Positions 12,619 to 61,593 are shown, numbered from the stretch's first letter. The stretch: DNA of 64,000 bases from Thermoplasmatota archaeon (GCA_048569615.1 JBLIRK010000005.1:2036-66035); one strand, 5' to 3'. Made by a program: numbers and translations. The notes: generated from the sequence alone by a model not told the origin.

Positions 12619-12651
12619 GAGGGAATAACTCTGAAGAACCTCAAGATCCTC

Positions 12652-40523: not shown

Positions 40524-41096
40524 TCAACCCAATATCTTCTTTAGCTCGATGAGATCGCCTGACCTTCCATCGATCCTTGCCAGCAGTTCGGTCGGGTCGT
40601 CGTAATAGGGCATTATTCCGATGTTCCATTCACATCCACCATTATCGGACTTGTCTCCTAGGAGATAGAGGAACGTAAGATGGATGTCCTTTCCCTTTTC
40701 GATATAATCCCTGTTCGTTAGCTCCTGTCTTGCAGTTGACACTGCACTGGTGGAATCCACCGACCAGTTCCTCACGGGAGCCTTCGAGAGCGGCTCCCCT
40801 GTCTCCTCCTCTATGCTCCCGTCTCCTGAGACAGTGAAGGCGACCGAGCCCAGAGGGAAGCCCGATGTGACATCGTTGTAGGCGAACTTCCACTTAACCG
40901 CTCTCCCGTCGCTTCCGGGCTCAACCGCAGTGACGACGACAAGAGATAGCTCCTTTCCGGTCTGCTCAACCCTCGTCCTCACAGTGGGATGATGTTTGAA
41001 AGCGGACATGCCCTCTTCTTCCCCGGAGCTCCCCAGGCATCCGCATATGAAAAGAATTACCGCGGCTCCAGCGAAGAGAATTGGAATTCTATTCAT
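40524..41096 (-). CDS. Putative lipoprotein (signal peptide plus lipobox-like ICGCLG), last gene of the coupled cluster
   Basis: MNRIPILFAGAAVILFICGCLGSSGEE. ATGA overlap with the upstream activase gene. Confidence 0.5.
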   Translation of the reverse strand: MNRIPILFAGAAVILFICGCLGSSGEEEGMSAFKHHPTVRTRVEQTGKELSLVVVTAVEPGSDGRAVKWKFAYNDVTSGFPLGSVAFTVSGDGSIEEETGEPLSKAPVRNWSVDSTSAVSTARQELTNRDYIEKGKDIHLTFLYLLGDKSDNGGCEWNIGIMPYYDDPTELLARIDGRSGDLIELKKILG

Positions 41097-41896
41097 TTTT
41101 TCGCTTCGCCTCCGTGCTTTTCAAGATACTCGGCGGCAAGGATCGCCGCCCCTGTGGCTGTAACTATCTGAGGGTTCTCTGGAACGTGCATCTTCCTTCC
41201 CAGCTCCTTCTCCATCGCATGCACCATGCCTATGTTCTTCGCGGGCCCCCCGTCGAAGAATATCACATCCCTTATCCCAACCTTCTTGGCCATGGCTACA
41301 AGCCTTCTAGCCACGGCCTTGTGTATGCCCATGATTATATCCTCCTTGGGATGGCCCTGGAAGATGAGGTTCGCAACCTCGGACTTGGCGAATACCAGGC
41401 ATGTGGTTGTTATGTCCACAGGGTCCCTGCTGGTGAGCGAGATCGGACCGAGGTCGTCGAGGGGAACCTCAAGCACCTTTGCAAGCACCTCCAGGAACCT
41501 TCCCGTCCCGGCCGCGCACTTGTCGTTCATGGCGAAGTTGATCATCTGCAGGTCGTCGTCCAGTGCTATGACCTTTGTGTCCTGGCCCCCGATATCTATT
41601 ATGGTCCGGACATTCAGTTCGGAGCCCAGCCACTGGACCCCTCTTGCATTAGCAGAGATCTCGCTGATGTTGTGTTCAGCGAGGGAGGTCACCCTCCGAC
41701 CGTAACCTGTGGACATGATCATCTCGATCTCCTCCCTCCTGACACCAGCCATTGCCATGGCCTCGTCAAGGACCTTCCTCGATGTGATGTCGTGGTCGTG
41801 GCCTGTGGGAGCGACGCCGTGCCCAATCCTCTTCCCGTCCATGACTATGGCGGATTTCACGTAGGTGGATCCCAGGTCCACTCCGGCGGTCATCAT
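41093..41896 (-). CDS. HgdC/BcrA/BcrD-type ATPase (CoA-substrate-specific enzyme activase), copy B. ORF 41093..42382 is trimmed to Met at 41896.
   Basis: MMTAGVDLGSTYVKSAIV is the ASKHA phosphate-1 motif. NDKCAAGTGRF and TTTCLVFAKSE preserve the two Cys that bridge the [4Fe-4S] cluster in HgdC. TGATG overlap with the upstream gene. The 162 upstream codons of the ORF are Arg/Gly-rich low complexity overlapping the neighbour, so they are read-through. Confidence 0.85.
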   Translation of the reverse strand: MMTAGVDLGSTYVKSAIVMDGKRIGHGVAPTGHDHDITSRKVLDEAMAMAGVRREEIEMIMSTGYGRRVTSLAEHNISEISANARGVQWLGSELNVRTIIDIGGQDTKVIALDDDLQMINFAMNDKCAAGTGRFLEVLAKVLEVPLDDLGPISLTSRDPVDITTTCLVFAKSEVANLIFQGHPKEDIIMGIHKAVARRLVAMAKKVGIRDVIFFDGGPAKNIGMVHAMEKELGRKMHVPENPQIVTATGAAILAAEYLEKHGGEAKK

Positions 41897-42783
41897 CACT
41901 TCCACCTCAGCAGTCTGTCCAGCAGTTTTGTTCTCTCCACCTTCACTTCTCCCTTGTCGTTCTCCCTCAATTTCAACGGTGAGCTCCGGGGTCTGGGAGC
42001 CGATAAAGCAGCCCCCAGGGCCCCTACTAAATGCGGCTCCTCGGGCACCATCATCTCCCTGTTTATGTCCTTCCTTATTTCCTCCACCACTCCCTTGTTC
42101 CTGGCGACACCCCCGCAGATCATGACCTTCCCCTTGCTCTGCGTCGAATTCACCAGGGCGATAATCTTCCTTGCCACCATCTGGTGGAGGCCCGCAAGTA
42201 TGTCGTCGGTCCTCTTTCCCTTGGCGATCAAGGACACGACCTCCGATTCCGCGAACACCGTGCAGGTGGCGTTCACGTGCTCCGCCAGCTTCGAGTGCAG
42301 GGATCGCTCGCCGACGTCGCCGATCTCCATCTCCAGGGCCATCGCCAAGGTGTCCATGAAGCAGCCTGTCCCCGTGGAGCACTTGTCGTTGGTCCTGAAA
42401 TCCGAAATGATCCCCATATCTCCCATCCTCATGGCCCTTACTCCGTGCCCCCCAATGTCAACGACGATCTCAACGTCCGGAACTAGAAAGAACGCGCCCT
42501 TGGCGAAGGAGGTGATATCCGTACGGGCCATGTCGGCGAAATCCAGGGACCTCCTGCCCTGACCGGTCGCCACGATGTAGCCGATATCGTTTCTCTTCAA
42601 TCCTTTCTGTTCGAGGAGCTGCTCCATGAGCCCCGAGGCGAGCTTTCCGGGCTCCATGGTGGTGTTTCCCAATACCGAACCCGCCACCTCCTTCCCGTTC
42701 TCAAGGAGGAGCACTTTGGTGGAGATCGCGCCGACATCTATGCCCAGGTCGTAGGGCTTCCCGGAAATAATTTCCCCGCTCAT
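41896..42783 (-). CDS. HgdC/BcrA/BcrD-type ATPase (activase), copy A
   Basis: YDLGIDVGAISTKVLLL, NDKCSTGTGCF and VNATCTVFAESEV. ATGA overlap with the upstream HgdB-like gene. Confidence 0.85.
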   Translation of the reverse strand: MSGEIISGKPYDLGIDVGAISTKVLLLENGKEVAGSVLGNTTMEPGKLASGLMEQLLEQKGLKRNDIGYIVATGQGRRSLDFADMARTDITSFAKGAFFLVPDVEIVVDIGGHGVRAMRMGDMGIISDFRTNDKCSTGTGCFMDTLAMALEMEIGDVGERSLHSKLAEHVNATCTVFAESEVVSLIAKGKRTDDILAGLHQMVARKIIALVNSTQSKGKVMICGGVARNKGVVEEIRKDINREMMVPEEPHLVGALGAALSAPRPRSSPLKLRENDKGEVKVERTKLLDRLLRWK

Positions 42784-44099
42784 CTGCCTGCCTCTTTGAA
42801 CTCCCTTCTAGCCTTGATCATCTCGACGAAGGCCTCCACCCTCGTCCTTACCTGCTCTATGTCGCCTTCGTCGTATTCGGATTCCAGCTTCACCATTGGG
42901 ATGCCCATCTCCCTGAGCTCCAGCTCGATCTTCGTCGCTTCCAGATTGTTCAGGTGGCACCCCCTCAATGTATGGAACACGACCCCCTCGATGCCGTAGG
43001 CCTTGATGGAGGTCTTGAGCCTCCTTAGCCTGTCCTCGTTGGGGCTGAAACATGGACAGGTACACGGAAAGAAATACCTCTCCGCTATTGCCTGAAGCAT
43101 CTCCTTCATGGTCCATCCCTCCAGCATCACGGGATCGGACATCAGCCTGAAACCGGTGCAAAGCTCGTCCGTCACGATGGTCCCGCCGGATTCCTCTATG
43201 ACGGTGGGGATCTTGAAGTTGGGGTACATCATGGGAGAGCCCGCAAGGAGTATCCTGGCCGCGCCCTCCTCCCCCGCCTGTATCGCCTTATCCTGCATCC
43301 CGTTCAGTTCGGATAAGAGCTCCCTTACCTTCTTGTTCCATCTGTCTATCCGGTCTATCTGGGAAGCCTGGACCACGAGCATGGCATCCCTGCCGGAGAT
43401 GGGGGGCTTATCTTTCCTTCGGATCTCCAGGAGCTTTGTCCAGAGCTCATTGGACTCGTTCCATTTCTCCACTTCCCTTCTGAGCTTCCGTTTGGTTATC
43501 TTATTCCCTGTTAGCTCCTCCAGCCTCTTCTTCAGATAGACTATCTCCGATACCCATAGCTTCGATGAGGTCTCCCCGATCTTGACCCTGGGTATGTTCA
43601 TCATAACAACGGGGACGAAATCCTCCAGGATCTCGGCCAGCTTCATCTTGCCGTCGCAGGTCGCGGGTCCCGCGACCATGTCCACCAGGTCCGCCACCGG
43701 ATTGGAGGAAACCATCTTCGTTCCCAGGGTGGCCTTTACCATGGGGCACAATCCCGCATCCCCCAGGAGCTCGTTGGCCGGATGGACAGGCTCGTAATAA
43801 CCGGAGCACAACCTAAGCCCCTGGGCGCCTGCGGCGCTTATCAGCTCGTAGGGGACCATCACGCATAACGTGCCGACGACCTTCCCTCCCTTCTCCCTGA
43901 ACTCCTTGAGCTCCAGGTACCTTACGCCTCCGTAGCGGTGAACCTCGTCGAAGTAGTTCATGGCCTTTGCCCTGTTCTTCTGGGCCTTCAGGTTCTTCCG
44001 GGAGGCCTCCTCCATCTGCTCGGACCTCTTCCTGGTCCTCGTCCGCTGCTCCTCCGAGAAGTATCCTTCCTTGTCCTTGAGGTACCTGCTGGGCATCAT
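42780..44099 (-). CDS. 2-hydroxyacyl-CoA dehydratase / benzoyl-CoA reductase D-component-like protein (HgdB/BcrC/BadD family). The ORF track extends to 44240, but the start is at the Met overlapping the upstream stop.
   Basis: Family-typical length of about 440 aa. N-terminal LKEFREKGGKVVGTLCVMVPYELI. Cys-containing blocks LCPMVKATLG, ELCTGFR and FPCTCPCFSPNED. C-terminal GIEGVVFHTLRGCH. ATGA overlaps on both sides. Confidence 0.6.
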   Translation of the reverse strand: MMPSRYLKDKEGYFSEEQRTRTRKRSEQMEEASRKNLKAQKNRAKAMNYFDEVHRYGGVRYLELKEFREKGGKVVGTLCVMVPYELISAAGAQGLRLCSGYYEPVHPANELLGDAGLCPMVKATLGTKMVSSNPVADLVDMVAGPATCDGKMKLAEILEDFVPVVMMNIPRVKIGETSSKLWVSEIVYLKKRLEELTGNKITKRKLRREVEKWNESNELWTKLLEIRRKDKPPISGRDAMLVVQASQIDRIDRWNKKVRELLSELNGMQDKAIQAGEEGAARILLAGSPMMYPNFKIPTVIEESGGTIVTDELCTGFRLMSDPVMLEGWTMKEMLQAIAERYFFPCTCPCFSPNEDRLRRLKTSIKAYGIEGVVFHTLRGCHLNNLEATKIELELREMGIPMVKLESEYDEGDIEQVRTRVEAFVEMIKARREFKEAGR

Positions 44100-45088
44100 C
44101 CTCCTCCTTTTCTGCTCGTATCCTTCTTCTTCTTGTTGATGAGGCCGAGAGCGGTCCTCTTCGGCCTCTTCGAGCTCACGATCCCGAAGGGACCATACAT
44201 CAGGGACAGGCAGTCCTTCTCGGGGCAGAGCTCCACGCATCTGCCGCAGAGTGTGCAGTCCTCCCCGGCGACATCGTCCTTCTCCATGTCCTCGTACACC
44301 TTATCGTGGTCCAGGGGGCAGACCCTGAGGCAGACGCGGCATCTTGTGCATTTCTCCGGGTCCTTCTTCAGCCAGGCAAGGGACGCACCGCTCAGAAGCG
44401 CCATCGCCCCGCCCATGGGGCAGATGCGGCAGAATGCCATCTTGATGAAGAAGGACGCCACCAGGAACAGCACCAGAATGACCAGTGCAAGGACGGGAAG
44501 CGTCGTCGTCCACGGCTCCAGACCGAATATCTGCTGGGTGACCGTAAAGAAACCCTTTGCGGGACAGACCTGACAGAAGGGGAGCGCCAGCGTTGACTGG
44601 CAGCCCATGATACCAAGGGCGGATATGCCGATGGGAATCGAAAGAAGGATCGTAAGGAAGATTATCACGTACTTGATCCGCCGGAGAACGACCCTGTGGC
44701 TCCATCTCAGCTTGTATGCGGGGATACCTGTCCTCTCCCGGAGCCACCCCATGAACTCCTGGACCATCCCGAAGGGGCAGAGCCAGGAGCACCAGAGCCT
44801 TCCCAGAAGGATGATCAGTATCAGGACCACCATGACCATGATCAGCACGTCAACGTAGCTGTTGTAGTAGCCCTGTGTGAGCCCGTCCTGGAGCTGATAA
44901 TAGAAGCAGGATGTCGGTGTGGTGTTGATATACCTGCAGGAGGCGTTGGGAAGGAATATCCTGCGGAGAAGGGGATATGTTCCAAAAGGGGGGAGACCGA
45001 GGAGCTGGCTTAGAATGAAACCCAGGGCAAGCCCCTGGACCGCGAACCTCCAAGGCCTGATCCTTGTCCCCTTGAACTCCCCCTTCAC
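44096..45088 (-). CDS. NapH/MauN-like membrane polyferredoxin: TM helices, a CSWLCPFG motif and two C-terminal 4Fe-4S ferredoxin motifs. The start is uncertain; GTG 45088 is proposed.
   Basis: LWCSWLCPFGMVQEF is the NapH/FixG-type motif. CQVCPAKG, CRICPMG, CTRCRVCLRVCP and CTLCGRCVELCP are present. The first 105 codons of ORF 44096..45403 are Arg/Gly-rich and overlap the upstream gene, so they are rejected. GTG at 45088 abuts the upstream stop (GTGA). Confidence 0.65.
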   Translation of the reverse strand: MKGEFKGTRIRPWRFAVQGLALGFILSQLLGLPPFGTYPLLRRIFLPNASCRYINTTPTSCFYYQLQDGLTQGYYNSYVDVLIMVMVVLILIILLGRLWCSWLCPFGMVQEFMGWLRERTGIPAYKLRWSHRVVLRRIKYVIIFLTILLSIPIGISALGIMGCQSTLALPFCQVCPAKGFFTVTQQIFGLEPWTTTLPVLALVILVLFLVASFFIKMAFCRICPMGGAMALLSGASLAWLKKDPEKCTRCRVCLRVCPLDHDKVYEDMEKDDVAGEDCTLCGRCVELCPEKDCLSLMYGPFGIVSSKRPKRTALGLINKKKKDTSRKGGG

Positions 45089-46380
45089 CCCCGTGCCCTC
45101 CTTTTCCTGATATGGTGTATCCAGAGCCTTGAAAGGACGGCAAGCTGGGCGATGAGGACAGCCACCAGCGCAAGCTGTACCACCTTCATCCACTGGACCA
45201 GGTCGTCGATCTCGCCGAGCACCGCCTCCGTCCTCTTGGTCTTTCCGTCGATAATATATACGTGGGGGGTGACGTAGCCCGATGTGTAATCGCCTTTGCC
45301 TATGTATCCGCCCTGTCCGGCGATTATCTCCATTTCCCCGTCCCTGTCCGGATCGGCGATCACGACACCCAGCACATCCCTTCCGAGCTCCCCGGAGGTC
45401 CATTCCAGGACCCTTGTCTCGGCATCGTAGACCCTGATGTAACCCGCCATGTTCGAAACGACGATCTCCAACGTCCCGTCGTCATCGACGTCCCCGATAT
45501 CGAGCCCGTAGGCCTTCGGGCCGATGTTCCCGCTCTTCCATACCTGGACGAAGTCATTGCCGTCGTAGGTGAAGATGAAGCACCATCCGTCCCTGTACCT
45601 GTACCCGTTTGAAACCACCATCTCCAGGACTCCGTCGCCGTCGAGGTCCACGACCTTCAAACCTTCAACACATCCTCCGAGATCGGGGCTCTTCCATTTC
45701 AGATCCCCAGTTTCCAGGTCGAATATCCTGATGTAGCCCTCTCCCCGGATATCTCCGAGCGACACTCCGGATGTGACGATCAGCTCCTCCTTCCCGTCCT
45801 GGTCAAGGTCGGCGATATCGATCTCCCTCAGCCTCGAATCGAAGGGCTCGAGCTCCCTGTAGGGATCGGATGAATTGTGCTCGAAGAAGTAGACCTGCCC
45901 CCATCCCTGGTCCGTCTTGAAACCCGACCCTACGATGAGCTCGTTCTCGCCGTCCCCGTCGACATCATGGAGGAGCAGGCCGTGGGCATCCCTGACTAGA
46001 GTCACTGATTCCCATTCGATCTCCTTCGTCCGTCCGTCCAGTGCCCTGACGTTCCCGTCACCGTCCCCGATGATGATCTCCATGGAATCGTCATTGTCGA
46101 ACTGGCCGGCCCTGAGGCCCCAGCACCGGGTCCCGAACCTGGGTGAGGTCCAGTCAACGGAGTAATCACCCCCGGCATATTCGACGGAGGTCACGTATCC
46201 GTCGTAAGAGCCGAAAAGTATCTCGTCCCTTCCGTCTCCGTCAACATCCTCGCATATGATGGACTGGAACCTTCCGATGCCGGAGGTGAGCTCCCTGGGC
46301 TCCACCACGGCTGATGCGGGCTGAAAGAATATCATCATCATCAGCAGGATGCAAAGGAAGTGAGGGAACCGCCCCTTCAT
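45085..46380 (-). CDS. FG-GAP/VCBS beta-propeller protein with signal peptide and C-terminal TM anchor. ORF 45085..46581 is trimmed to Met 46380.
   Basis: MKGRFPHFLCILLMMMIFFQPASA is a signal peptide. Blades EDVDGDGRDEILFGS, HDVDGDGENELIVGS, ADLDQDGKEELIVTS, VDLDGDGVLEMVVSN, GDVDDDGTLEIVVSN and ADPDRDGEMEIIAG. C-terminal LALVAVLIAQLAVL then RKRRARG. The trimmed start gives an ATGA overlap with the upstream stop. Confidence 0.7.
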   Translation of the reverse strand: MKGRFPHFLCILLMMMIFFQPASAVVEPRELTSGIGRFQSIICEDVDGDGRDEILFGSYDGYVTSVEYAGGDYSVDWTSPRFGTRCWGLRAGQFDNDDSMEIIIGDGDGNVRALDGRTKEIEWESVTLVRDAHGLLLHDVDGDGENELIVGSGFKTDQGWGQVYFFEHNSSDPYRELEPFDSRLREIDIADLDQDGKEELIVTSGVSLGDIRGEGYIRIFDLETGDLKWKSPDLGGCVEGLKVVDLDGDGVLEMVVSNGYRYRDGWCFIFTYDGNDFVQVWKSGNIGPKAYGLDIGDVDDDGTLEIVVSNMAGYIRVYDAETRVLEWTSGELGRDVLGVVIADPDRDGEMEIIAGQGGYIGKGDYTSGYVTPHVYIIDGKTKRTEAVLGEIDDLVQWMKVVQLALVAVLIAQLAVLSRLWIHHIRKRRARG

Positions 46381-47573
46381 CCCCTGGACCTCCGGATCTC
46401 CCTGTATGCGGGATAGAAGAATGCGACCAAGGCAGCTGCCCCGATAATGATGAGGGATACGGCGGTGATGGTCCCGATGGGAAGTCCGTCCCCCTCTCCC
46501 GCTTCGCCGCCGAATCCGTAGAGTATGACGGTATGGCTCTTTCCCAGTCCAGAGGCCAGGAACCTGCCGTCCGGGGACCACCTTGACATCATCACCATGG
46601 CATGCTGCTCCATACCGTCCTTGATCACTTTCAGTTCGGTACCGGTCACGGAATCCCTTATCTTCAGAGTGAGGTCAACACCGGAGGTGGCAGCTATCTC
46701 CTGAAAGGGGTGGAAATCGACGGACCTGACGCAGTTGTTGTCGGACCATGTGGCGAGGATCTCGCCGGTGGATGAGTTCCAGACCTTGATCTTGTAATCC
46801 CTGGAGCCGGTGATGAGCCTTGAATCATCCGGAGACCAGTCGATGTCCAGAACACCTGTGGTATGCCCGGTCGCGTTCATCACCTCGGTCCTTGTGGAGA
46901 ACTCCATGATCCTTATCATCCTGTCATCGGATGCGGATGCGAGCCTGTCACCCTCGTTCGACCATCTCACTGCGAGCACTCCATCCCTGTGCCAGTTGAG
47001 GGTGTGGTAGAGCCTGCCTGTCTGCATGTCCCATATGCGGACAGCGTTCTCCTCCTGGTTCTGCGGGATGACCTTGTCCCTCCCCGAGCCGGACGCCAAG
47101 TATCTGCTGTCAGGGGAGAAATCGAGGCAGAGGATGGAGCCGGAGTGCCCCCTCAGCATGTACTTCTCCTCCCAGGTCGCCGTATCGAACACGGTTATAA
47201 TGCGGTCGTCCCCGCCCACAGCCAGGAGCTTTCCGTCGGGGGAGAAGCAGCAGGCGCGGAGCGGATTCGTCCCCTCGGGGGAGAACCCGTCGCATCTCGT
47301 ATCCTCCGGGACGAGGTCGAGCACGGTCCTGATCCCACCGTCAGTGGCGTTCAGAACCACGCATTTATCGTCGAAGAACGTGGCGGCGATCATCGATCCG
47401 TCGGGGGACCACGACAGCTTCCAGAATGTCGCCTCGCTGTCCTCCTTGGTGTACATCCAGATGACCTCCGCCCTTGCCGGATCTATTTCCGCTACCTGGG
47501 CTGCTGCGGGATTCAAGGGCAGAAGGAGGATGAGCAGTCCGAATGCTGTCGCCGGAATGACGGCTATTTTCAT
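46377..47573 (-). CDS. WD40-repeat beta-propeller protein with signal peptide and C-terminal TM anchor
   Basis: LRGHSGSILCLDFSPDSRYLASGS, VRIWDMQTGRLYHTLNWHRDGVLAVRWS and TGHTTGVLDIDWSPDDSRLITGSRDYKIKVWN. N-terminal MKIAVIPATAFGLLILLLPLNPAAAQ. C-terminal AVSLIIIGAAALVAFF then REIRRSRG. Confidence 0.8.
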   Translation of the reverse strand: MKIAVIPATAFGLLILLLPLNPAAAQVAEIDPARAEVIWMYTKEDSEATFWKLSWSPDGSMIAATFFDDKCVVLNATDGGIRTVLDLVPEDTRCDGFSPEGTNPLRACCFSPDGKLLAVGGDDRIITVFDTATWEEKYMLRGHSGSILCLDFSPDSRYLASGSGRDKVIPQNQEENAVRIWDMQTGRLYHTLNWHRDGVLAVRWSNEGDRLASASDDRMIRIMEFSTRTEVMNATGHTTGVLDIDWSPDDSRLITGSRDYKIKVWNSSTGEILATWSDNNCVRSVDFHPFQEIAATSGVDLTLKIRDSVTGTELKVIKDGMEQHAMVMMSRWSPDGRFLASGLGKSHTVILYGFGGEAGEGDGLPIGTITAVSLIIIGAAALVAFFYPAYREIRRSRG

Positions 47574-49231
47574 GTAAGCACCTCCCTCTCCTCGTTCCGG
47601 TTCCTCAAGTAAACAACTAAGGTGACGAATCCGGTTAGCAAGTTCAGGCCGGCGATCACCGCTATTATGATACCGTTGCTCAAGCGACCGCTTTTATCGA
47701 CTGTTGACGAAGCTGTTTCGTCATCTGCCTCCTCCCCGGGCTCCACGATTACATTGGCGGAGGCCGTTCCCGGCTCCAACCCTTCCTTCACGACTTCCAA
47801 TTCGATATTGACCGTCGACCTCGAGCTGACCCTGATGGGGAAGTAGAATACCTCGACCTCCCCCTCCTCGTTGGTCAAGTATTTCAACCTCGTATTGCCA
47901 TCCTTGTCAAAGGCAATGTACCCAGCGGAAATGGAGAAGGTGACCTCAGCTCCCTCGACGGGGGAGCCCTCGTTATCGGTCACCCTTACGATCATGGATG
48001 TGGAATTGTCGGAGGTTATCTCCTTATCCGTTGTGTTGATGGCCGCAGACAGACCGGGCGGGCGGACCCCAACGCAGTAAACGGACCGGTCCGAGGAGCC
48101 GAAATATACCCTTTCCAGGTAGATGACGGGTGATGAATAGACATAACCCCCGGTCGAGAAGGTCCATACCAGGTCCCCGTTGGTCTCGTTGAAGCAGTAG
48201 AGGTTGTAGTCGTCGGAGCCGATGAACAATTTCCCATCCGAGACCACGGGGGACGAGCCCCCCTGGAAATCATGGGTGGGGGAGGACCAGATCACCTCGT
48301 CTTCGGAGATGTTGCCGTCCGAATCAGGGTCATCGATCGGAAGGCACCATGTGTACTCGAAGGACCCGAAGAATACCCTGTCATCTCTGACGATCGGTGT
48401 GGAATAGGTATCGTGGCCAGTGAAGAAGGACCATTTAATATCCATGGTATCCGGGTCCACATTGTAGATCCTCTGGTCCATCCCTGCGGTCAGCAGCAGA
48501 TTATCATCATGGAGCACTCCGGAGGAATACACCTCGGCATACTCCCCGAACTCCACCTTGTCCAGTACCTCTCCGTCGTCCAGCGATAGCCTGTAGAGGC
48601 TCCTTCCGGTGTCCCCGATGAAGAGCACCCCCCTTTCCTCGTCTACGATCCCCGAGGCCCAAATGGGAAGGTCGGATATCGGAGACCTCCAGATCTCCTG
48701 TCCCTCCTTAGATAATCTGTACACGATCCCGGCCAGGTCCGAGAAGATGACCGAATCCCCGAAGGCGTGGGCCGAGGATTTGATCTCTCCCTCGGTCTCG
48801 AAGGACCAGAGGGTCTCAGGTTCGGAGGTCGATCCCTCCGGTGGAAGCGAGATGCAGTAGAAATTGCGGTCAAGTGATCCGAAATATCCCCTGCCATTCT
48901 CCAGAAGGACCGTTGCTTGTACATCGTCCCCCGACTTGAACTTCCAGTTCATACTCCCGGTCACGGGGTCCAGGCAGTAGACCCAGTCGTCCTCCGAGCC
49001 AATGACCAGACCGCCTGGGTAGAAAGTGGGAGAGGAGAGAACCTGACTCCCGGTGTCGAAGGACCATATCAATTCGCCCTTCTCAGGAGCATCCCCGTCT
49101 TCAAGGGCCAGGTGCAGGGGGTCCCCCCTCCACTGGCTCCATGCGCCCTCTGAGGGATCCGAACCCGTGAAGGATATAAAGAGGAGGAGAACTAGGATGG
49201 CCGCCGCTGTGATCTTGGAAATAGAGCTCAT
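47570..49231 (-). CDS. PQQ-like (BamB/YxaL-type) beta-propeller repeat protein with a C-terminal Ig-like domain and TM anchor
   Basis: Repeats of the type (W/Y)(S/K)F.TG..(V/I).SSP. and the linker GDLVWTFSTGGYVYSSPVIY. Signal peptide MSSISKITAAAILVLLLFISF. C-terminal IIIAVIAGLNLLTGFVTLVVYL then RNRNEE. Confidence 0.7.
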   Translation of the reverse strand: MSSISKITAAAILVLLLFISFTGSDPSEGAWSQWRGDPLHLALEDGDAPEKGELIWSFDTGSQVLSSPTFYPGGLVIGSEDDWVYCLDPVTGSMNWKFKSGDDVQATVLLENGRGYFGSLDRNFYCISLPPEGSTSEPETLWSFETEGEIKSSAHAFGDSVIFSDLAGIVYRLSKEGQEIWRSPISDLPIWASGIVDEERGVLFIGDTGRSLYRLSLDDGEVLDKVEFGEYAEVYSSGVLHDDNLLLTAGMDQRIYNVDPDTMDIKWSFFTGHDTYSTPIVRDDRVFFGSFEYTWCLPIDDPDSDGNISEDEVIWSSPTHDFQGGSSPVVSDGKLFIGSDDYNLYCFNETNGDLVWTFSTGGYVYSSPVIYLERVYFGSSDRSVYCVGVRPPGLSAAINTTDKEITSDNSTSMIVRVTDNEGSPVEGAEVTFSISAGYIAFDKDGNTRLKYLTNEEGEVEVFYFPIRVSSRSTVNIELEVVKEGLEPGTASANVIVEPGEEADDETASSTVDKSGRLSNGIIIAVIAGLNLLTGFVTLVVYLRNRNEEREVLT

Positions 49232-49339
49232 CCCAACGGTTATTTCAGACCCTCCCGAACGATCGCCATTTGCCAGGCTCTCCGGAACATTGCGGGTCTG
49301 CGGTTATAATAGTTATGGGGGGCTCCCCGAATCTGTAAC

Positions 49340-50626
49340 CTATCCCTTTCTTATCCTCCTGTATCTCTTCCAGAATACGGCGAGGATGACACCGATGATG
49401 ATCGCGACTGCAAGGGCGAGGAAGAGCATATCCCTGTTTGCGCTCACCTCCCGCCCGATATCGAATGCGTCGTCCCCATCATCATCATCGGTAACCGGAA
49501 TGTTCTGCCTGAGGCATCTTACATACCCGTTCCTGTCCCCGAAGAAGACCTTGGAGCCGTATGCCGACGGGGAGACCTCGCTGGCATCCCCGTATTCGAA
49601 GCTCCGGTAGATGCTTCCGTTCCCCATATGGACCATGACCAGCCCCTGTTCACAGGTCGCATATACGAGCTTCCCGCCTATTACGGGGGATGTCTCAAGC
49701 TGGGAAGGACCGAGGTCAAGGGTCCATTCTATCGAACCATATTCTGCATCCAGGCAGTAGAGGAGCCCGTCATTGGCCCCGACCATAACCTTCTCGGCGT
49801 TTACGGCAGGTGAGGATTGGATGTCGCCTCCCAGGGCGGTGCTCCAGATGAGCTCCCCGTCCCCGGCGTCAAGGCAGTACATGTTGCTGTCGTAGGAGCC
49901 GAAATATATCCTTCCTTCCATGATCGCGGGTGAGGATGGAATGTAAGCAGCGGAGAAGTTCCATTTATGCTCCCCGGTCAATGCATCCAGACATCTCAGC
50001 ATCCCGTCGCAGGAACCGAAATATAGGTTGTTGTCATGGACGGCAGGGGTTGTGTGTATCCATCCCTGGCATCCGATGTAATCCCAAGAGGGGGTCCCAT
50101 CCGGTTTCAGGCTGTAGAACTTAGAATCATAGGATCCGAAATAGATCATGTCGCCGGGTCCGTTGGGGGAGGAAATGATCTCCTTCCCCGATCCCGTATC
50201 AAAGGTCCATAGCTGCGCTCCTTCTTCCATGGAGAGCGCCGTCACCATACCAGAACTGTCGCACACTGCGAGATCGTTCGTTTCCTCGATATACAGGGGT
50301 GTCGAGAATATAGGTGCTCCGACGTTGTAGCTCCATTCCAGGCTCCCGAACTCCGAATTCAGCTTGTAAACCGTCCCGTTGGAGGTGCCGAACACGCACC
50401 AGCCTTCCTCAGCGATGACTGCGGTGCCGATGGATGAATCCGCCCGGAACTCCCAGGACAGGAAGACCTCTCCCTTCAACGGATCTGAAAGGTCGGTGGT
50501 GGTTCTTCCCGTATTCGACGGATCTCCCCTGAAGCTGTTCCAGCCTAGCGCAGCGGGACCCGCAACCATCAATATCGACAGGAGAATCGAAAGGATCGCC
50601 CCTGTCCTTCCAGGGGAGCACTTCAT
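49340..50626 (-). CDS. Second PQQ-like beta-propeller repeat protein with signal peptide and C-terminal TM anchor; the ORF could extend to 50698
   Basis: MKCSPGRTGAILSILLSILMVAGPAALG is a signal peptide. Repeats LEWSYNVGAPIFSTPLY, QLWTFDTGSGKEIISSP, HKWNFSAAYIPSSPAI and LIWSTALGGDIQSSPAV. C-terminal LALAVAIIIGVILAVFW then KRYRRIRKG. Confidence 0.7.
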   Translation of the reverse strand: MKCSPGRTGAILSILLSILMVAGPAALGWNSFRGDPSNTGRTTTDLSDPLKGEVFLSWEFRADSSIGTAVIAEEGWCVFGTSNGTVYKLNSEFGSLEWSYNVGAPIFSTPLYIEETNDLAVCDSSGMVTALSMEEGAQLWTFDTGSGKEIISSPNGPGDMIYFGSYDSKFYSLKPDGTPSWDYIGCQGWIHTTPAVHDNNLYFGSCDGMLRCLDALTGEHKWNFSAAYIPSSPAIMEGRIYFGSYDSNMYCLDAGDGELIWSTALGGDIQSSPAVNAEKVMVGANDGLLYCLDAEYGSIEWTLDLGPSQLETSPVIGGKLVYATCEQGLVMVHMGNGSIYRSFEYGDASEVSPSAYGSKVFFGDRNGYVRCLRQNIPVTDDDDGDDAFDIGREVSANRDMLFLALAVAIIIGVILAVFWKRYRRIRKG

Positions 50627-50678
50627 GGAGATAGAACCAGTTCGACTGGGATTAAAAGCTTGCGCTCTCATAAGTTCG

Positions 50679-53600
50679 TCACCTTCTGAATACCGCATCG
50701 TATCCCTTCACCGCCCACATCGAGGAGGCGATGCCTATTACGAGGGAGGCCAGAAGAAAACCTCCGGGGATCAGGATTATGGGTGCCGCCATATCGGGGG
50801 TCAGGAAGGCAGAATCGGACATGGTGAAAAAGACGAGTGCTCCCGCCGCCGATCCCGCAATCGCACCTAGCAGAGCGATCATGAAGACCGCCAGGTTCTC
50901 CAGCAGGAAATACATGACGGATCTTCCTTTGGGGGCCCCTATTGTCCTCAGCAGGGAGATCTCCTTTCTCATGTCCACGGCCCTCGCATGGGTGAAAACA
51001 ACAGCCGAGGCGAGGGAGAGTATCACGCCCAGCAAGAGGAAGTCCCGGAACAGGTAAAGGTACGAGAGCTCGTACCTGGCATTTTCCAGGGCAAGGTCCC
51101 TGACCGGCGTTATCAGGGGAGAGAAATCCTCGAAGATCCCCTCAACGGCTTCCTTGCCCCCTCCGTTCGCCCTGACTAGGAAATAATCCGGTGCGGCCGT
51201 GGAGGGGAAGAGGTCCTTCAGAAAGGTAGAAGAGAGAACGAAGCTCCCGGTGAACACGGAGGACTCCAGGACACCCACGACAACAAGGGTCACCCTCTCT
51301 CCGTTCTCGGTGTCCAGCTTGAACTCCGAACCCAGCTTCTCGTAGTATATCCATGCAAGTGTGTTCTGATCCACGAGGATGGGTATCCTTCCGTCGATCT
51401 TCGAATGGAGCATCTCCCAAGCTTCCTTATCGCTTCCCATGCCCTTTCTTCTCTCCATAAGCCCGAAGCCCGATACGTTCGAGAAGCCCTCCCGGACACC
51501 AAGGAGCCTGGGAGGATAGACGGCATTGACGTTGGAGCAGGTCCCCCCCTCCGAGCCGACGGAGAGCAAGGATTCAACATCCATTGCTCCGGACCGCAGC
51601 TCTCCCCTGAAGGGAACCGGGAGCTCCACCACGTAATCGAATCCGCCCCCGTAATCGCCTATCCCATCCTCCGCATCCGCTTCTAGCATGGCACCGATAA
51701 CGGTCAGTGAGAGTGAAATGGTGAGAGCCATGGCAAGGATGGAGATGGTAAGCGGATGCTTCCTCGGCCTTCTCGTGATATTGGCGCTCACAATGAGAAG
51801 CAGATCGCTTCTTCTGGACACCCTTGACGCAATAAGGTAGATAAGGAGAGCGGTCCCGGCTGAAAACACGATGGAGCCCAGTGTGAACAATAGTCCCTTC
51901 GCATAGATATCATCGGAACCGGAGCCAGACACAAGCAGGGCAATACCAATTATGATGGATGCCCCCGAAGCTCCGAAGTGGAGAAGCCTGCCTCTCATTG
52001 TCGGGCTTCCCACGGAGATGTCCTCTTCCCTCAGGTTGACCGCGGGAACACTGCCGGTCTCCCTCCAGACCGCAATGAGGGACAGGACCATGGATGAGAT
52101 CACTCCGATCGATATCGAGATGAGGACAGTGCCTGCCGAGACCGAGAAGGGGACGGAGGAGTTCTCAACGGAATCAGACCAGGCCGAGGAGAGCCCCGCG
52201 TTCAGGACGAAGGAGAATACGAATCCCACCGGCAGTCCGATAAGGCTTCCCGCCACGATGCTCCAGGCGGATTCGACCAAGGCCGCCTGGAACAGCCCTC
52301 TCCTTCCGGCCCCTATCGAGCGGAGTATCCCCCACTCATGTGACCGTCTAGCCGCCATATCCTTGATCACGGCATACAGCGTAAGGAGGGCACCGGCGAT
52401 CATTACCGTTCCGAATGAAAGGAACATTCCCGGAAAGATGAGCATGGCGCGGGATGATTCCAGAGCCCTTTCCCGGACGGGGACCAGGCTGATACCCATC
52501 GAAGAGTGGTCAAGCCCGTCCCCAATATTATCTAATTCTCCTTGGACATCCTCTCCCCGGACCAAGAGAGCGTTTGAATCACCGTAGCTTCCCGCCCACA
52601 TCTCCCTTGCGTCCTCCAGGCTCACGAAGCATTTTGGGGTTGTCCTGTAAATGTCCCAGTATTCGAGGTCTGCCTCCCCGAGAGAATCGAGGTCTAGGTC
52701 GAATGATGGATCCCACTCGTTGCAGGACGGGGCATCAGTCACCCCCTCGATCGGGGGCAGGAATCCCGGCTCCATACCGATTCCGGTCATGTTGTAGACG
52801 GCGGCGACCCTGAACGTCCTTTCCTCCTCCCGCAGCTCCCCGAGGAGGGTCACCTTCCTGTAGGAGACCACGATATCATCACCGATGGAAAGCCCCATCC
52901 TTTCGGCGGTCCAGTTGTTGACCGCTATTTCGCCGGTTCCCGGCAGGGGGCCGGATCCTTGAGGTCCAATCATCTCGAGCTCCTCCATCAGACCGGGCCG
53001 GACCCCGGAGACAACGGAATACGAGAGCTCCCCGTTCCCGGATGCCAGTGAATCAACGAAATACGAGAGCGAGAGCCCTTCATTCCCTTCTTCCGTCAGG
53101 TCCGTCTCGTCGAAGAACAGGCCGTCGCTGTAGATGAAGGAGCCTCCGCTGGATAGGGATCCCACCACCCTGAAGCCCGCCTCATCTAGACCCACGGCGT
53201 CGTCAAGAAGGGACATTATGGAATCCATGATCTTTCCCGAGCCGCCGTCCGATACGGTATCTATCAGTACCGTGTTCACCTTCCCGACGATCCCCAGCCT
53301 CTCCTGAACGAGTCCGATATCGACCACCAGGATCGGCTCCACCTTTGCGAGGGAATCCGTCCTGAACCTTCCGATACCCCGGTTCTCGATCACAGCCTCC
53401 ACCGTAAGGTTCAGGGTGATCCTGTCGGACCTGTCAAAACCGAGAAGGCTCTCCTCCCTGGTGGAAAAGGAGGGTACCGATATCCTGATGCCTCCGCCGC
53501 TGCCCTCTTCCAATTTCTTCGAGAGCTCCCTGTTGACGTAGCACCCGTACCTCGGTGGAGCACCCAAGTTATCGGATGATTCCGCCTCTACGGCACCCAG

Positions 53601-54086
53601 CATTTCTAGGTCGTCGTCATCGACGGCCATCAACTTGATGCCGACCGACGATCCCCCTTCCAATTCAGTCCCGATTCCATCGAGGAGGATCAGCGAGCAG
53701 AATGAGTCCACACCCTCGATATCCCCTATTCCTGCCCTTTCCATGAGGGCCTCCGGGACGTACCCCGGGGCCGAGATCATGATGTCAACGCCGGACAGGT
53801 TTGCAGCGGTGTTCTCCTCCACCATCTTCAGAAGGCCGTCGCCGACCGAGAGGGATGCAAGGAATATGCCTACCAGAAGAGCAACAGGAAGCCCCCTGGC
53901 TATACCGGGGCCGAGAGACCGCATTGCGAATTTCATGCCAACGCCCGAAGCCGCTCTGCCCTGCCTTGTCAGCGATCCCGCGATCGCCATAATGAAAAGA
54001 AGGAATACCGCGGCGGAAATCGTAAGGATCGGTATCCAGCCCGGCACCAACTCCATGTTTTTCAATCGGCAAGCGGATATATCCAA
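50679..54086 (-). CDS. Double-module FtsX/MacB-family ABC-type permease (1135 aa) with two large extracytoplasmic domains; no ATPase gene adjacent
   Basis: Two FtsX-like 3-TM bundles are each preceded by a conserved amphipathic segment, (I)LRSIGAGRRGLFQAALVES.. and (L)LRTIGAPKGRSVMYFLLENL... An N-terminal TM is followed by a roughly 450-aa extracellular region. Confidence 0.75.
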   Translation of the reverse strand: MDISACRLKNMELVPGWIPILTISAAVFLLFIMAIAGSLTRQGRAASGVGMKFAMRSLGPGIARGLPVALLVGIFLASLSVGDGLLKMVEENTAANLSGVDIMISAPGYVPEALMERAGIGDIEGVDSFCSLILLDGIGTELEGGSSVGIKLMAVDDDDLEMLGAVEAESSDNLGAPPRYGCYVNRELSKKLEEGSGGGIRISVPSFSTREESLLGFDRSDRITLNLTVEAVIENRGIGRFRTDSLAKVEPILVVDIGLVQERLGIVGKVNTVLIDTVSDGGSGKIMDSIMSLLDDAVGLDEAGFRVVGSLSSGGSFIYSDGLFFDETDLTEEGNEGLSLSYFVDSLASGNGELSYSVVSGVRPGLMEELEMIGPQGSGPLPGTGEIAVNNWTAERMGLSIGDDIVVSYRKVTLLGELREEERTFRVAAVYNMTGIGMEPGFLPPIEGVTDAPSCNEWDPSFDLDLDSLGEADLEYWDIYRTTPKCFVSLEDAREMWAGSYGDSNALLVRGEDVQGELDNIGDGLDHSSMGISLVPVRERALESSRAMLIFPGMFLSFGTVMIAGALLTLYAVIKDMAARRSHEWGILRSIGAGRRGLFQAALVESAWSIVAGSLIGLPVGFVFSFVLNAGLSSAWSDSVENSSVPFSVSAGTVLISISIGVISSMVLSLIAVWRETGSVPAVNLREEDISVGSPTMRGRLLHFGASGASIIIGIALLVSGSGSDDIYAKGLLFTLGSIVFSAGTALLIYLIASRVSRRSDLLLIVSANITRRPRKHPLTISILAMALTISLSLTVIGAMLEADAEDGIGDYGGGFDYVVELPVPFRGELRSGAMDVESLLSVGSEGGTCSNVNAVYPPRLLGVREGFSNVSGFGLMERRKGMGSDKEAWEMLHSKIDGRIPILVDQNTLAWIYYEKLGSEFKLDTENGERVTLVVVGVLESSVFTGSFVLSSTFLKDLFPSTAAPDYFLVRANGGGKEAVEGIFEDFSPLITPVRDLALENARYELSYLYLFRDFLLLGVILSLASAVVFTHARAVDMRKEISLLRTIGAPKGRSVMYFLLENLAVFMIALLGAIAGSAAGALVFFTMSDSAFLTPDMAAPIILIPGGFLLASLVIGIASSMWAVKGYDAVFRR

Positions 54087-54254
54087 TTTGGGGAAATGGC
54101 GGTAAGCAGGATGTATTATTCAGTAATCATGAACTGCTGGCCATTGAAAGCACCCCTTTCCAAGAGATTCAACGAAGAGTGTAGGAACTCTTGAAAATCG
54201 TTATATATAAGTGATGATTACAACGGCAATCCGCCCCTGAGCCTTTCGCCGGAA
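54087..54254. promoter_or_regulatory. Divergent intergenic/promoter region between the permease cluster (-) and the acd-etfBA operon (+)
   Basis: 168-nt non-coding gap with TATA-like TTATATATAAG about 40-60 nt upstream of the + strand start. Confidence 0.3.
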
Positions 54255-54293
54255 GTGAAATGTTCATTTTGGGGTGAAGAGAGCCGTGGGACC

Positions 54294-55952
54294 ATGACGG
54301 GATTCGAAAGGGAGACAAGGGAACTGATCCTTGAGAGCATCAGGGAATATGCCAGGAGGAACCTCTCGGAGGAGAGGCTCCTCGAGGTGGACGAGAACGG
54401 CCTGTTCCCGGCCGAGGACCTGAGAAAGATGTACGAGCACGACGAGCTCGGCATACACCTGCTCCTGATACCAAGGGAGTACGGAGGTCTGGGAGCTTCA
54501 AATTACGATGCTTACAGGGTCTGCGAGTTCCTGGCAAGGATAGACCTCGGTATAGCCACCGGCATATTCGCCACCTTCCTGGGCCTCGATCCCATCAGGG
54601 TCGGAGGCACACCGGAGCAGAAGGAGAAATGGATGAGGATGGTGGCGGACCGGAACCTCCTTGTGGCCTATGCCGCCACCGAGGCCGAGGCAGGCTCGGA
54701 CCTGGGGGCCCTGAAAACCAAAGCGGTCAGGGTGGTTGAGGACGGCAAGCTTGCAGGCTACCGGATCAGCGGATCGAAGCAGTGGATATCCAACGGCGGG
54801 ATAGCCGATATCTATCTTGTCCTCGCCCTGGTGGAGAACGGCGTCAGCTGGTTCATAGTCCCAGGCGATGCCGAAGGCTTGATAAAGGGCTCCCCCGAGG
54901 ACAAGCACGGGATCAGGGCCGCCGACACCGTTGCCTTCACCATGGACGATGTCTTCGTCCCCGCGGAGAACCTTGTAGGGGAAGTTGAAGGCCTCGGCCT
55001 GTCACAGGCCCAGGCCGTATTCGGATATACCAGACTGATGGTCGCGGCCTTCGGACTTGGAGCGGGATCGGAGGCCCTTGAAAGGGCTGTGAGATATTCC
55101 CAGGACAGGGTGCAGGCCGGAAGCCCGCTGTGCGACAAGCAGGGCTACACCCACAAGCTTATAGTACCCCATGCAGTGAAACTTGCAGCCGCAAGGGCCT
55201 ACATCGAGCATGTGGCCCACCTGCTGGACGAGGGGAGCGAGGACCTCCAGACTGAAGGGGCGATTGCGAAGTATTTCTCCACCAATGCTGGAAATGGAGC
55301 GGCCGAGGACGCCATTCAGGCCCTCGGCGGTTACGGCTACGTCAGGGAATACATGGTGGAGAAGATAAAGCGGGACGTCAAGATAACCCAGATATACGAG
55401 GGGACCAACGAGATAATGGAGATGACCATTGCCAGGAACCGGTGGCAGGACCATCTCAAGAGCAGGTCCACGTATTATCACGACCTGTCCAGGGAGATGC
55501 GGGACCTGCATGAGAAGTCCCCGTCCGTCGGGGCCTCCCAGATGGCCCAGGCCCTGGACGCCTTGAACGTAATATTCGAGAGGTGCAAGAGGCAGAAGCT
55601 CACGAGGAACCAGCATACGCTGTTCAAGCTGGGCGAGCTCTCCGCAGAAGCCGAGGTTTCGATGATATTCTGCAGAACAGCGGCTCTTGACCGATACAGT
55701 GAGGCCTTCCCGTACGACAGAGAGATGATGAGGGCCATGTCGAGGATACAGGCAAGATGGGCGGCCCACAGGATCGTCCACGAGGGCATCGAGCTCGTTC
55801 TCGGCGGGGGGAGCGGCGATGTCTCCTCGATGCTTGAGGAGACCGGACTCGAATCCATTATCTCGGCCCAGAGGGGCCTCCTCCAGGACATGGACCTTGT
55901 CGCTACCATGATCAAGGATGTGTACAGGTCCAGGGCAGGTGGTGCCAAATGA
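54294..55952 (+). CDS. Acyl-CoA dehydrogenase (long form with C-terminal extension); the ORF could start at 54255
   Basis: ACAD N-terminal helical, middle beta and C-terminal helical blocks. YAATEAEAGSDLGALKT, GSKQWISNGG and QALGGYGYVREYMVEKIKRDVKITQIYEGTNEI (ACAD C-terminal signature). ATGA overlap with etfB. Confidence 0.85.
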   Translation: MTGFERETRELILESIREYARRNLSEERLLEVDENGLFPAEDLRKMYEHDELGIHLLLIPREYGGLGASNYDAYRVCEFLARIDLGIATGIFATFLGLDPIRVGGTPEQKEKWMRMVADRNLLVAYAATEAEAGSDLGALKTKAVRVVEDGKLAGYRISGSKQWISNGGIADIYLVLALVENGVSWFIVPGDAEGLIKGSPEDKHGIRAADTVAFTMDDVFVPAENLVGEVEGLGLSQAQAVFGYTRLMVAAFGLGAGSEALERAVRYSQDRVQAGSPLCDKQGYTHKLIVPHAVKLAAARAYIEHVAHLLDEGSEDLQTEGAIAKYFSTNAGNGAAEDAIQALGGYGYVREYMVEKIKRDVKITQIYEGTNEIMEMTIARNRWQDHLKSRSTYYHDLSREMRDLHEKSPSVGASQMAQALDALNVIFERCKRQKLTRNQHTLFKLGELSAEAEVSMIFCRTAALDRYSEAFPYDREMMRAMSRIQARWAAHRIVHEGIELVLGGGSGDVSSMLEETGLESIISAQRGLLQDMDLVATMIKDVYRSRAGGAK

Positions 55953-61518: not shown

Positions 61519-61593
61519 ATTAACAGCTCCGAAACCAACCTGAGTCCAATATCTTGGTGTATTATTAATCGTTTTAGGTAACGCCCAGTATGG

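Follow-up and report, generated by a model that had tools for sequence, protein, structure and literature searches.

Introduction

Double-cubane cluster proteins (DCCPs) were reportedly described in 2018 as nitrogenase-like, ATP-driven [8Fe-9S] reductases. The DCCP of Carboxydothermus hydrogenoformans and its reductase DCCP-R (CHY_0487/CHY_0488; PDB 6ENO and 7YYL) form a soluble two-component system with a homodimeric reductase (PMC7317905, PMC9351452). The characterised DCCP reduces acetylene, hydrazine, and azide in an ATP-dependent manner (PMC9351452), and its double-cubane is where small molecules are turned over and does not act as a relay (PMC9351452, PMC7317905). Six cluster ligands and one nearby cysteine make up the published motif, CX19CX18-19CX29CX166-170CX32-34CX32C (PMC7317905). 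The biological function of DCCPs has been stated as unknown up to 2025 (PMC7317905, PMC9351452, PMC11971306), while a statistical link between DCCP and selD has been published (bioRxiv 10.1101/2022.07.06.499078). Here we analysed 64,000 nt of DNA from a Thermoplasmatota archaeon (GCA_048569615.1 JBLIRK010000005.1:2036-66035; the window, i.e. this whole stretch), in which a DCCP gene is part of a ten-gene cluster at 40524-54086 that also encodes two ATPases, a NapH-like membrane protein, four surface propellers, and an FtsX-type permease.

An earlier interpretation made from the DNA alone (the sequence-only reading) had proposed ten head-to-tail genes on the minus strand, and all ten open reading frames (ORFs) were found where it had placed them. 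All of its family calls were confirmed by Pfam profile search. The genes are named in the order of transcription, from G1 (50679-54086) to G10 (40524-41096). Stop and start codons overlap by 4 nt at seven junctions in a row, from G3/G4 to G9/G10, the G5/G6 and G6/G7 boundaries among them. The translational coupling that had been claimed is borne out by these overlaps; the count of six given with it was an error, since seven junctions were found and the sequence-only reading had itself listed seven. Of the two small gaps it reported, the 108-nt gap between G2 and G3 is there. The other, of 52 nt between G1 and G2, exists only if G2 starts at Met25, the first ATG giving a 20-nt overlap. Most internal starts are preceded by GGAGG-like motifs.

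The DCCP and its ATPases

G7 (42780-44099) is a DCCP, a catalytic reductase for which the [8Fe-9S] cluster and the activity are predicted. It matched Pfam HGD-D (E 2e-96) and scored 360.2 bits with the NCBIfam equivalog model NF040772, against a curated cut-off of 350. The protein was 100% identical to one from a Thermoplasmatota metagenome-assembled genome (MAG) that bears the NCBI name 'double-cubane-cluster-containing anaerobic reductase'. Its best PDB match was the C. hydrogenoformans DCCP (7yyl_C/6eno_A, E 6e-73), aligned end to end, whereas subunits of benzoyl-CoA reductases or of 2-hydroxyacyl-CoA dehydratases (BzdN, HadC) were matched at only about 1e-21. The cysteine motif read C79-X18-C98-X19-C118-X29-C148-X165-C314-X33-C348-X32-C381, with three spacings one residue off the published ones. 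All seven cysteines aligned with cysteines of 7yyl_C, and the six ligand cysteines were invariant in 33 homologues. At its N-terminus G7 carries some 40 aa of basic extension. G8 (41896-42783) and G9 (41093-41899) follow immediately downstream, each overlapping the gene before it by 4 nt, so that archerase-type ATPases are encoded alongside the DCCP. Because G7 passed NF040772, matched the solved DCCP, carried the seven-cysteine motif, and was accompanied by archerase-type ATPases, we assigned G7-G9 to the described DCCP/DCCP-R system.

The sequence-only reading had named these proteins HgdB/BcrC-like and HgdC-like, and had credited them with the chemistry of 2-hydroxyacyl-CoA dehydratase activators and benzoyl-CoA reductase. 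The superfamily was right (HGD-D and BcrAD_BadFG). The chemistry did not hold, the module being of the DCCP/DCCP-R type: with the HadB, HadC, BcrC, BzdN, and BzdO models G7 reached 20-90 bits against cut-offs of 420-750 (HadC, 89.7 vs 700; BzdN, 82 vs 454; BcrC, 80 vs 421). Moreover, G7 is the only HGD-D gene of the cluster, and a dehydratase or benzoyl-CoA reductase needs two different HGD-D subunits.

Both ATPases matched Pfam BcrAD_BadFG and passed TIGR00241 (cut-off 125), G8 with 195 bits and G9 with 242 bits. In PDB they matched solved activators, MbdQ/MbdP, and DCCP-R, the best match of G8 being 4eht (2.8e-56), and in sequence they were nearer to the dehydratase activators and MbdQ than to DCCP-R. 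Each has a pair of cysteines 38 residues apart (C135/C174 in G8, C128/C167 in G9), and two cysteines per subunit are predicted to bridge one shared [4Fe-4S] cluster in G8/G9. The nucleotide motifs were canonical in G9 (DLGST(YVK) and DIGGQDTK; 86 G9-type sequences compared) and degenerate in the G8 family (DVGaixTK and DiGGqGvR; 43 G8-type sequences). Since G8 and G9 share 33% identity, and G8 has degenerate motifs with the cluster cysteines kept, the two most likely form an asymmetric heterodimeric reductase in which G9 is the canonical and G8 the degenerate subunit. The degeneracy of G8 suggests that such a heterodimer would be half-active. In some relatives (e.g. P0051) the DCCP was fused to a G8-type ATPase, and in bacterial versions the ATPase was of the canonical G9 type only.

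The membrane iron-sulfur protein

The gene directly before the DCCP, G6 (44096-45088), is predicted to encode a four-helix NapH-like protein whose ferredoxin domain, with two [4Fe-4S] clusters, faces the cytoplasm. Pfam detected Fer4_5 and a dicluster ferredoxin. An AlphaFold (AF2) model built on 48 homologues had a predicted local distance difference test score (pLDDT) of 83.4 and a predicted template modelling score of 0.79, and contained four transmembrane (TM) helices and a C-terminal ferredoxin domain. When this model was compared with PDB by Foldseek, only the ferredoxin domain was matched, and no solved structure was found for the membrane part. On the predicted cytoplasmic side lie CX3CP (C100/C104), CX2CP (C220/C223), and two CxxCxxCxxxCP [4Fe-4S] motifs; CX3CP, CX2CP, and the eight ferredoxin cysteines were invariant in 67 family members. 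Four more cysteines lie in two loops, C51 and C61 between TM1 and TM2, C172 and C175 between TM3 and TM4. They were shared by 97% of the bacterial members and by about 73% of the archaeal ones, and the positive-inside rule predicts that both loops face outward.

The sequence-only reading had spoken of a NapH-like polyferredoxin. This was apt for the architecture and the resemblance, and not for identity with NapH, as G6 scored far below the cut-offs (95.6 bits vs 234 for NF007013; 91.7 vs 213 for TIGR02163). The NosR model gave 51 against 1000. Pfam scanning of the ORFs revealed no nap genes in the window, and no nap, nos, or mau genes were nearby G6. In some relatives (L003 and L013) a second, divergent NapH-like (Fer4_5) paralogue was located about 6 kb downstream of the cluster.

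Linkage across archaea and bacteria

We investigated the linkage of these genes from both ends. In the forward test, a G7-homologue alignment was scanned against one genome per species, and the neighbourhoods of the 80 loci were scored against the ten cluster proteins; in the reverse test, a G5-orthologue alignment was scanned against metagenome contigs, yielding 61 true orthologue loci. Denominators of the reverse test are the contigs that reached far enough to show the partner. In the forward direction, the gene directly upstream of the DCCP was of the G6 type in 36/37 archaeal loci and 38/39 bacterial ones, and an ATPase lay downstream in 24/34 and 37/37, respectively. The propellers were found upstream of the DCCP in archaeal loci only, down to about 44% DCCP identity (G5, 23/28 archaeal and 0/33 bacterial loci; G4, 21/26 and 0/27). 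In the reverse direction, G5 was accompanied by G6 in 37 of 37 contigs and by G7 in 24 of 24, with G4 (31/31) and G3 (22/22) both upstream, and by ATPases in 15 of 19. The least constant member was G1, present upstream of the propeller block in 9 of 13 contigs.

No G5 orthologue turned up without G6 and G7, and the G5 propeller family appears to exist in the context of DCCP clusters only. The bit scores of the G4-G7 orthologues fell together across loci, and the same gene order was seen in more than 60 independent contigs with differing flanks, at DCCP identities from 100% to about 44%. Because the partners recur while the flanking genes differ from locus to locus, the cluster is a conserved unit. 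The neighbourhood search that had been proposed as a check gave co-occurrence in relatives in both directions, and the conserved synteny strongly backs the earlier claim that an ATP-driven Fe-S module is hard-wired to a membrane ferredoxin and to propellers.

Two layouts were distinguished. Type A, that of the window, runs FtsX-PQQ-PQQ-WD40-FGGAP-NapH-like-DCCP-ATPase-ATPase. Type B has one PQQ propeller and, between the FG-GAP and NapH-like genes, a Cys-rich DsbD_2-like gene, which was found between G5 and G6 in 30/37 metagenome loci. Its product is about 240 aa long with a Cys-rich loop (L006 8284-9009, with C96, C101, C104, C117, C120, and C126; another example is L152 6323-7045). The window clade has the second PQQ-like propeller in place of this gene. 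Three more genes often come after type B, for a Kelch propeller, a small Cys-rich membrane protein, and a giant FG-GAP/PKD protein. Orthologues of these three genes are present in the window on the plus strand at 12589-17332, about 23 kb from the cluster (FG-GAP/PKD, 12652-15594; Kelch, 15595-16866; Cys-rich membrane protein, 16859-17332; phmmer 2e-138, 3e-153, and 4.5e-68). Elsewhere such orthologues adjoin the DCCP or lie within a few kb of it (L005, L007, L020, L028, L094, L105, L111, L113, and L137), and we tentatively regard the window genes as probable distal accessories that may belong to the DCCP system.

In both bacteria and archaea, G6, G7, and the ATPase form a conserved three-gene core. 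In Thermoplasmatota, membrane-anchored PQQ-like, WD40, and FG-GAP propellers come before this core, and in most cases an FtsX/MacB-type permease as well. Bacterial carriers belonged to Sedimenticolaceae, Thiodiazotropha, Magnetococcales, Hyphomicrobiales, Desulfovibrionales, Clostridia, and Dehalococcoidia, and included the cultured Desulfobulbus rhabdoformis DSM 8777, Anaerosacchariphilus polymeriproducens, and Anaeromicropila populeti. In Proteobacteria the core was flanked by genes for DUF2946, a TonB-dependent receptor, a DUF4198-like protein, and a DsbD_2 protein placed after the ATPase. ExbBD/TonB genes were nearby in many of these loci, and several (L044, L051, L053, and L059) had an added set of MacA, MacB ATPase, and MacB permease. 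An FtsX/MacB-type permease recurs in both domains. For the regulators and the pump that flank the bacterial core, NCBIfam gave only generic PhoPQ-like and MacAB-like names, without a clue to the substrate. In Clostridia/Firmicutes and some archaea the G6 homologue carried an N-terminal extracytoplasmic domain of about 160-230 aa. In every lineage, an extracytoplasmic element was attached, genetically or physically, to the NapH-like/DCCP core.

Two further arrangements were noted among the bacterial loci. Upstream of long NapH-like proteins (about 400-600 aa, the N-terminal domain without a Pfam match), Clostridia and relatives had a second, divergent HGD-D paralogue (L073, L080, and L082-L086). 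In a Dehalococcoidia MAG (L042), a propeller, DsbD_2, NapH-like protein, DCCP, and two ATPases followed one another in the archaeal style, which could reflect interdomain transfer, or convergence in cells without an outer membrane.

Surface propellers, permease, and putative lipoprotein

Upstream of G6 the cluster encodes four beta-propellers. G2 (49340-50698; Pfam PQQ_2, 2.7e-32) is a PQQ_2/BamB-like propeller with type-I anchoring (signal/TM 33-51, C-terminal TM 424-442) and was confined to type A clusters. G3 (47570-49231) combines a PQQ_2/BamB-like propeller with an Ig-like (Big_1) domain and a C-terminal TM. G4 (46377-47573) is a WD40 propeller (Pfam WD40, 2.9e-47) with signal peptide and C-terminal TM, and G5 (45085-46380) is a seven-repeat FG-GAP, integrin-alpha-like propeller (FG-GAP_3, 1.9e-22), likewise with signal peptide and C-terminal TM, whose DxDxDG..E calcium-site-like loops were near-invariant. 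Hydropathy gave all four an N-terminal hydrophobic segment, and a TM at the C-terminus with basic residues after it. This would place the propellers outside the cell, in line with the extracellular, C-terminally anchored propellers of the sequence-only reading.

The PQQ-like label needed qualification. The PQQ_2 family was correct, whereas a quinoprotein identity was not, since PQQ-dehydrogenase models gave 55 bits (G2) and 22 bits (G3) against 480; the best NCBIfam similarity of both was to BamB-type scaffolds, likewise below cut-off. Pfam, NCBIfam, and conservation revealed no heme, flavin-binding, or copper-site motifs in the propellers or G6. Invariant extracytoplasmic cysteines were found in G1, G2, and G4, those of G4 being C94 and C281 and those of G1 being C455 and C850 (24 orthologues).

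G1 encodes a fused double FtsX/MacB-type permease of 1135 aa from a TTG start, an ATG at 54056 being an alternative. It was predicted by hydropathy and Pfam to cross the membrane about 10 times, to expose two large domains on the extracytoplasmic side, and to lack an ATPase domain. FtsX (PF02687) was matched in two stretches with 56.8 bits against a cut-off of 25.5, and there was weak similarity to the NCBIfam ADOP/LolCE models; MacB_PCD was not detected in G1 and was weak or faint in its orthologues. Searches of the 64-kb window (Pfam on the ORFs scanned, and phmmer with a MacB-type ATPase on all ORFs of at least 60 aa) revealed no ABC ATPase, and none was detected beside G1 orthologues in the metagenome loci, in agreement with the 'orphan' permease of the sequence-only reading.

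At the other end, G10 is a 190-aa, lipobox-bearing secreted protein without family, with no Pfam or NCBIfam match and a conserved lipobox-like [LI][SC]GC. Orthologues occurred in the closest relatives only. Its AF2 model (pLDDT 57.7, low confidence) contained two alpha+beta4 repeats, and the best PDB matches of the model were all PepSY-domain proteins (vibriolysin propeptide, CD1622 lipoprotein, YpeB, and FoxB). We tentatively view G10 as a clade-specific accessory that may consist of two PepSY-like repeats, tentatively because only two database relatives were found and the model is of low confidence.

Control regions and other genes of the window

The divergent intergenic region at 54087-54254 contains a palindromic TATA-like element, TTATATATAA, at 54201-54210, read directly from the sequence. 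The element lies between G1 and plus-strand genes for an acyl-CoA dehydrogenase (ACAD) and electron transfer flavoprotein (ETF), and is common to both sides; the region probably holds the cluster promoter, with an archaeal promoter role predicted. The promoter-like sites counted, 14 against 6.2 +/- 2.3 expected, came from a sigma-70 consensus and have no bearing on an archaeon. A scan for bacterial-type terminators gave terminator-like sites not above the shuffled expectation. In an Rfam scan for riboswitches, only two tRNAs were returned from the window and seven bacterial loci; a tRNA scan was empty.

The divergent genes (54255-57940, plus strand) encode the ACAD, EtfB, and an EtfA that carries a ferredoxin domain at its N-terminus. 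Large predicted surface proteins crowd the window at 17339-21991, 31567-38517, and 57952-63942, all on the minus strand, and include a 1550-aa SBBP-propeller/fn3 protein, a 2316-aa protein with 13 FG-GAP repeats, a 1188-aa transglutaminase-like/Ig protein, and a 782-aa Big_7 protein. At 3428-9744 (plus strand), a PD-(D/E)XK nuclease protein (1042 aa) sits beside a UvrD-type helicase (1080 aa) that ends in a nuclease domain, and the two look like an AddAB-type helicase-nuclease. AddAB is mainly a bacterial system, and the pair here is on a Thermoplasmatota contig.

Discussion

The reading we favour, which we give an even chance of being correct, is that the cluster encodes a membrane-docked, ATP-driven, low-potential DCCP reductase and that this enzyme is coupled to proteins of the envelope by which its substrate is captured or its product exported. 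G6 would dock the soluble enzyme at the membrane, and its two cytoplasmic clusters would act as the 'ferredoxin' that passes electrons from the quinol pool or another membrane-side donor to the G8/G9 cluster. ATP hydrolysis, mainly at G9, would drive these electrons onto the [8Fe-9S] double-cubane of G7, which would reduce a small refractory substrate. The propellers and G1 would be the wall-less archaeon's counterpart of the proteobacterial TonB-dependent receptor, DUF4198-like protein, and MacAB, with the propellers and the FtsX permease capturing the substrate at the surface and handing it inward, or removing the product. The outer-face cysteines predicted in G6, G1, G2, and G4, together with the DsbD_2-like partner of sister lineages, hint at a thiophilic substrate, be it a metal, metalloid, sulfur, or selenium compound, and because of the published DCCP-selD link a selenium or sulfur species is one candidate.

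Several points weigh against this reading. The direction of electron flow through G6 is a proposal, and either direction is possible. A. woodii is not known to have quinones, and some carriers of the three-gene core are labelled Acetobacterium or Clostridia, so quinol would be no universal donor for G6. About a third of the archaeal loci are without an adjacent ATPase, no metal-binding His/Cys cluster was evident in the PQQ-like propellers, and phmmer revealed no DsbD_2-like gene in the window, whose clade also lacks that gene. No ATPase partner of G1 was seen in any locus, which makes its energisation hard to explain. The genome is also rich in large surface proteins, and some of the adjacency could be generic; such crowding leaves the exclusive association of G5 with the DCCP unaccounted for.

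The ATP-energised, very low-potential electrons of the double-cubane might instead be coupled, via the NapH-like protein, to surface chemistry on an extracellular platform made of the four propellers and the FtsX-type permease. Bound there would be a refractory, thiophilic compound such as elemental or mineral sulfur or selenium, or else a metal or an organometal species. We regard this as doubtful. If true, it would give DCCPs their first physiological role and define a new envelope-spanning, ATP-powered reductive machine with differing outer shells in archaea and bacteria.

Most proteins of the NapH/NosR/MauN/RdhC family connect electrons of the membrane or the cytoplasm with partners on the extracytoplasmic side, among which are propeller enzymes (NosZ, methylamine dehydrogenase), while CcoG is reported to be a cytoplasmic-side cupric reductase. 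By analogy with NosR-NosZ and MauN-methylamine dehydrogenase, the main rival to the favoured reading would have electrons from the DCCP and ATPases delivered outward, through the outer cysteines of G6, to activate, repair, or keep reduced the propellers, which would be the real catalysts. The service of NapH, NosR, MauN, and RdhC to extracytoplasmic redox enzymes speaks for such delivery, as do the four conserved outer-face cysteines predicted in G6, the invariant extracytoplasmic cysteines of G1, G2, and G4, the DsbD_2-like partner, a parts list resembling nosRZDFYL, and a conservation of G5 that is unusual for a mere adhesin. We nevertheless think it unlikely. The double-cubane of DCCPs is a small-molecule catalytic site and not a relay (PMC9351452, PMC7317905), the propellers and G6 lack heme, flavin-binding, and copper-site motifs, PQQ-dehydrogenase models were far below cut-off, and in bacteria the core is unchanged without a propeller (0/33). 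The sequence-only reading had put forward three possible roles, an electron conduit to or from the surface, redox maturation of the surface proteins, and envelope remodelling; for the conduit, no heme or other obvious outer-face redox cofactor was found.

A smaller chance is left for an envelope assembly or remodelling machine, in which the FtsX permease would move or activate the propellers mechanically, as in FtsEX and LolCDE, and the DCCP core would serve as a redox or energy sensor or regulator. What speaks for it is that the MacB/FtsX mechanotransmission superfamily includes G1, that propellers typically serve as scaffolds for interactions, and that further surface proteins (Kelch, FG-GAP/PKD) co-localise in other lineages. 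However, G1 is the least constant member (9/13) and has no ATPase, the most constant link being propellers-G6-DCCP. An ATP-consuming [8Fe-9S] reductase would be implausibly costly as a sensor, and the bacterial core sits with uptake genes (TonB-dependent receptor, ExbBD) and not with assembly genes.

It is very improbable that G7-G9 are a dehydratase or benzoyl-CoA reductase of acyl-CoA fermentation, working with the divergent ACAD/ETF genes and unrelated to the surface genes. The HGD-D and BcrAD_BadFG matches and the position of ACAD, EtfB, and ferredoxin-EtfA immediately upstream on the other strand would fit such a pathway, but one HGD-D subunit is present where two are needed, and the subunit models were far below cut-off while the DCCP model was passed. 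Among the loci examined, an ACAD/ETF neighbour was seen in the closest relative (L087) only, L003 and L071 having an fn3 gene upstream of FtsX instead, and in the reverse synteny test the surface genes were obligately linked. Although many other large surface proteins lie in the window, there is hardly any probability left that an operon for surface proteins came to lie beside a DCCP operon by chance in a surface-gene-crowded genome, this being contradicted by the reciprocal synteny test, by the same order in more than 60 independent contigs with differing flanks, by the 4-nt overlaps at G5/G6 and G6/G7, and by the absence of any G5 without G6 and G7.

Three things appear new: the NapH-like protein as a conserved third partner of a large DCCP subfamily in two domains, the archaeal propeller/FtsX shell on the DCCP core, and the proteobacterial envelope genes that parallel this shell. 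The family of the redox module is already known. The sequence-only reading knew of no described system of this composition; for the redox module this was mistaken, as DCCP/DCCP-R is described, and the composite was indeed not found in full-text literature searches, which covered subscription papers in part, so that an earlier mention of the NapH-like protein is possible. The cluster provides a first genomic clue to the natural role of the DCCP family, and turns the search for a substrate away from metabolites of the cytoplasm, towards something that is dealt with at the envelope or passes through it. A set of archaeal surface propellers that is strongly conserved and had gone unremarked is defined as well, and the cultured carriers of the core could be used for genetics.

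Comparison with described systems

G1 resembles the type VII ABC systems MacAB-TolC, LolCDE, and FtsEX in having two FtsX domains and large extracytoplasmic domains. Unlike in those systems, it is a single fused polypeptide of about 10 TM with no ATPase gene nearby. The nos cluster (nosRZDFYL) also combines a NapH-like protein, an external propeller, an ABC-type permease, and a small lipoprotein. The homology stops at the NapH-like domain, however, the window propellers have no copper-site histidines, and nos clusters are without the cytoplasmic ATP-driven reductase that the window system has. With NapH, NosR, MauN, RdhC, and CcoG, G6 shares four TM helices, CX3CP-type motifs at the predicted cytoplasmic face, and a C-terminal two-[4Fe-4S] domain; it differs from that family in its partner, a cytoplasmic DCCP, and in four extra conserved cysteines predicted at the outer face.

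The redox module belongs to the same enzyme superfamily as the class I benzoyl-CoA reductases (BcrABCD, BzdNOPQ, MbdNOPQ) and the 2-hydroxyacyl-CoA dehydratases with their activators, and BzdN too has an [8Fe-9S] cluster (PMC11971306). As in BcrAD, BzdPQ, and MbdPQ, the ATPase module of the window system is predicted to be heterodimeric. Those enzymes act upon CoA esters and are built with a pair of unlike HGD-D subunits, whereas the window encodes a single DCCP-type subunit. The closest likeness is to the DCCP of C. hydrogenoformans, with the same seven-cysteine motif in G7 and adjacent archerase-type ATPase genes, and the same chemistry would be expected, i.e. ATP-driven reduction of small molecules at an [8Fe-9S] cluster. 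In contrast to the homodimeric DCCP-R, there are here two diverged ATPase genes, one with degenerate ATP motifs, and to what is a soluble two-component system in C. hydrogenoformans the window system adds a NapH-like third partner, surface propellers, and an FtsX permease.

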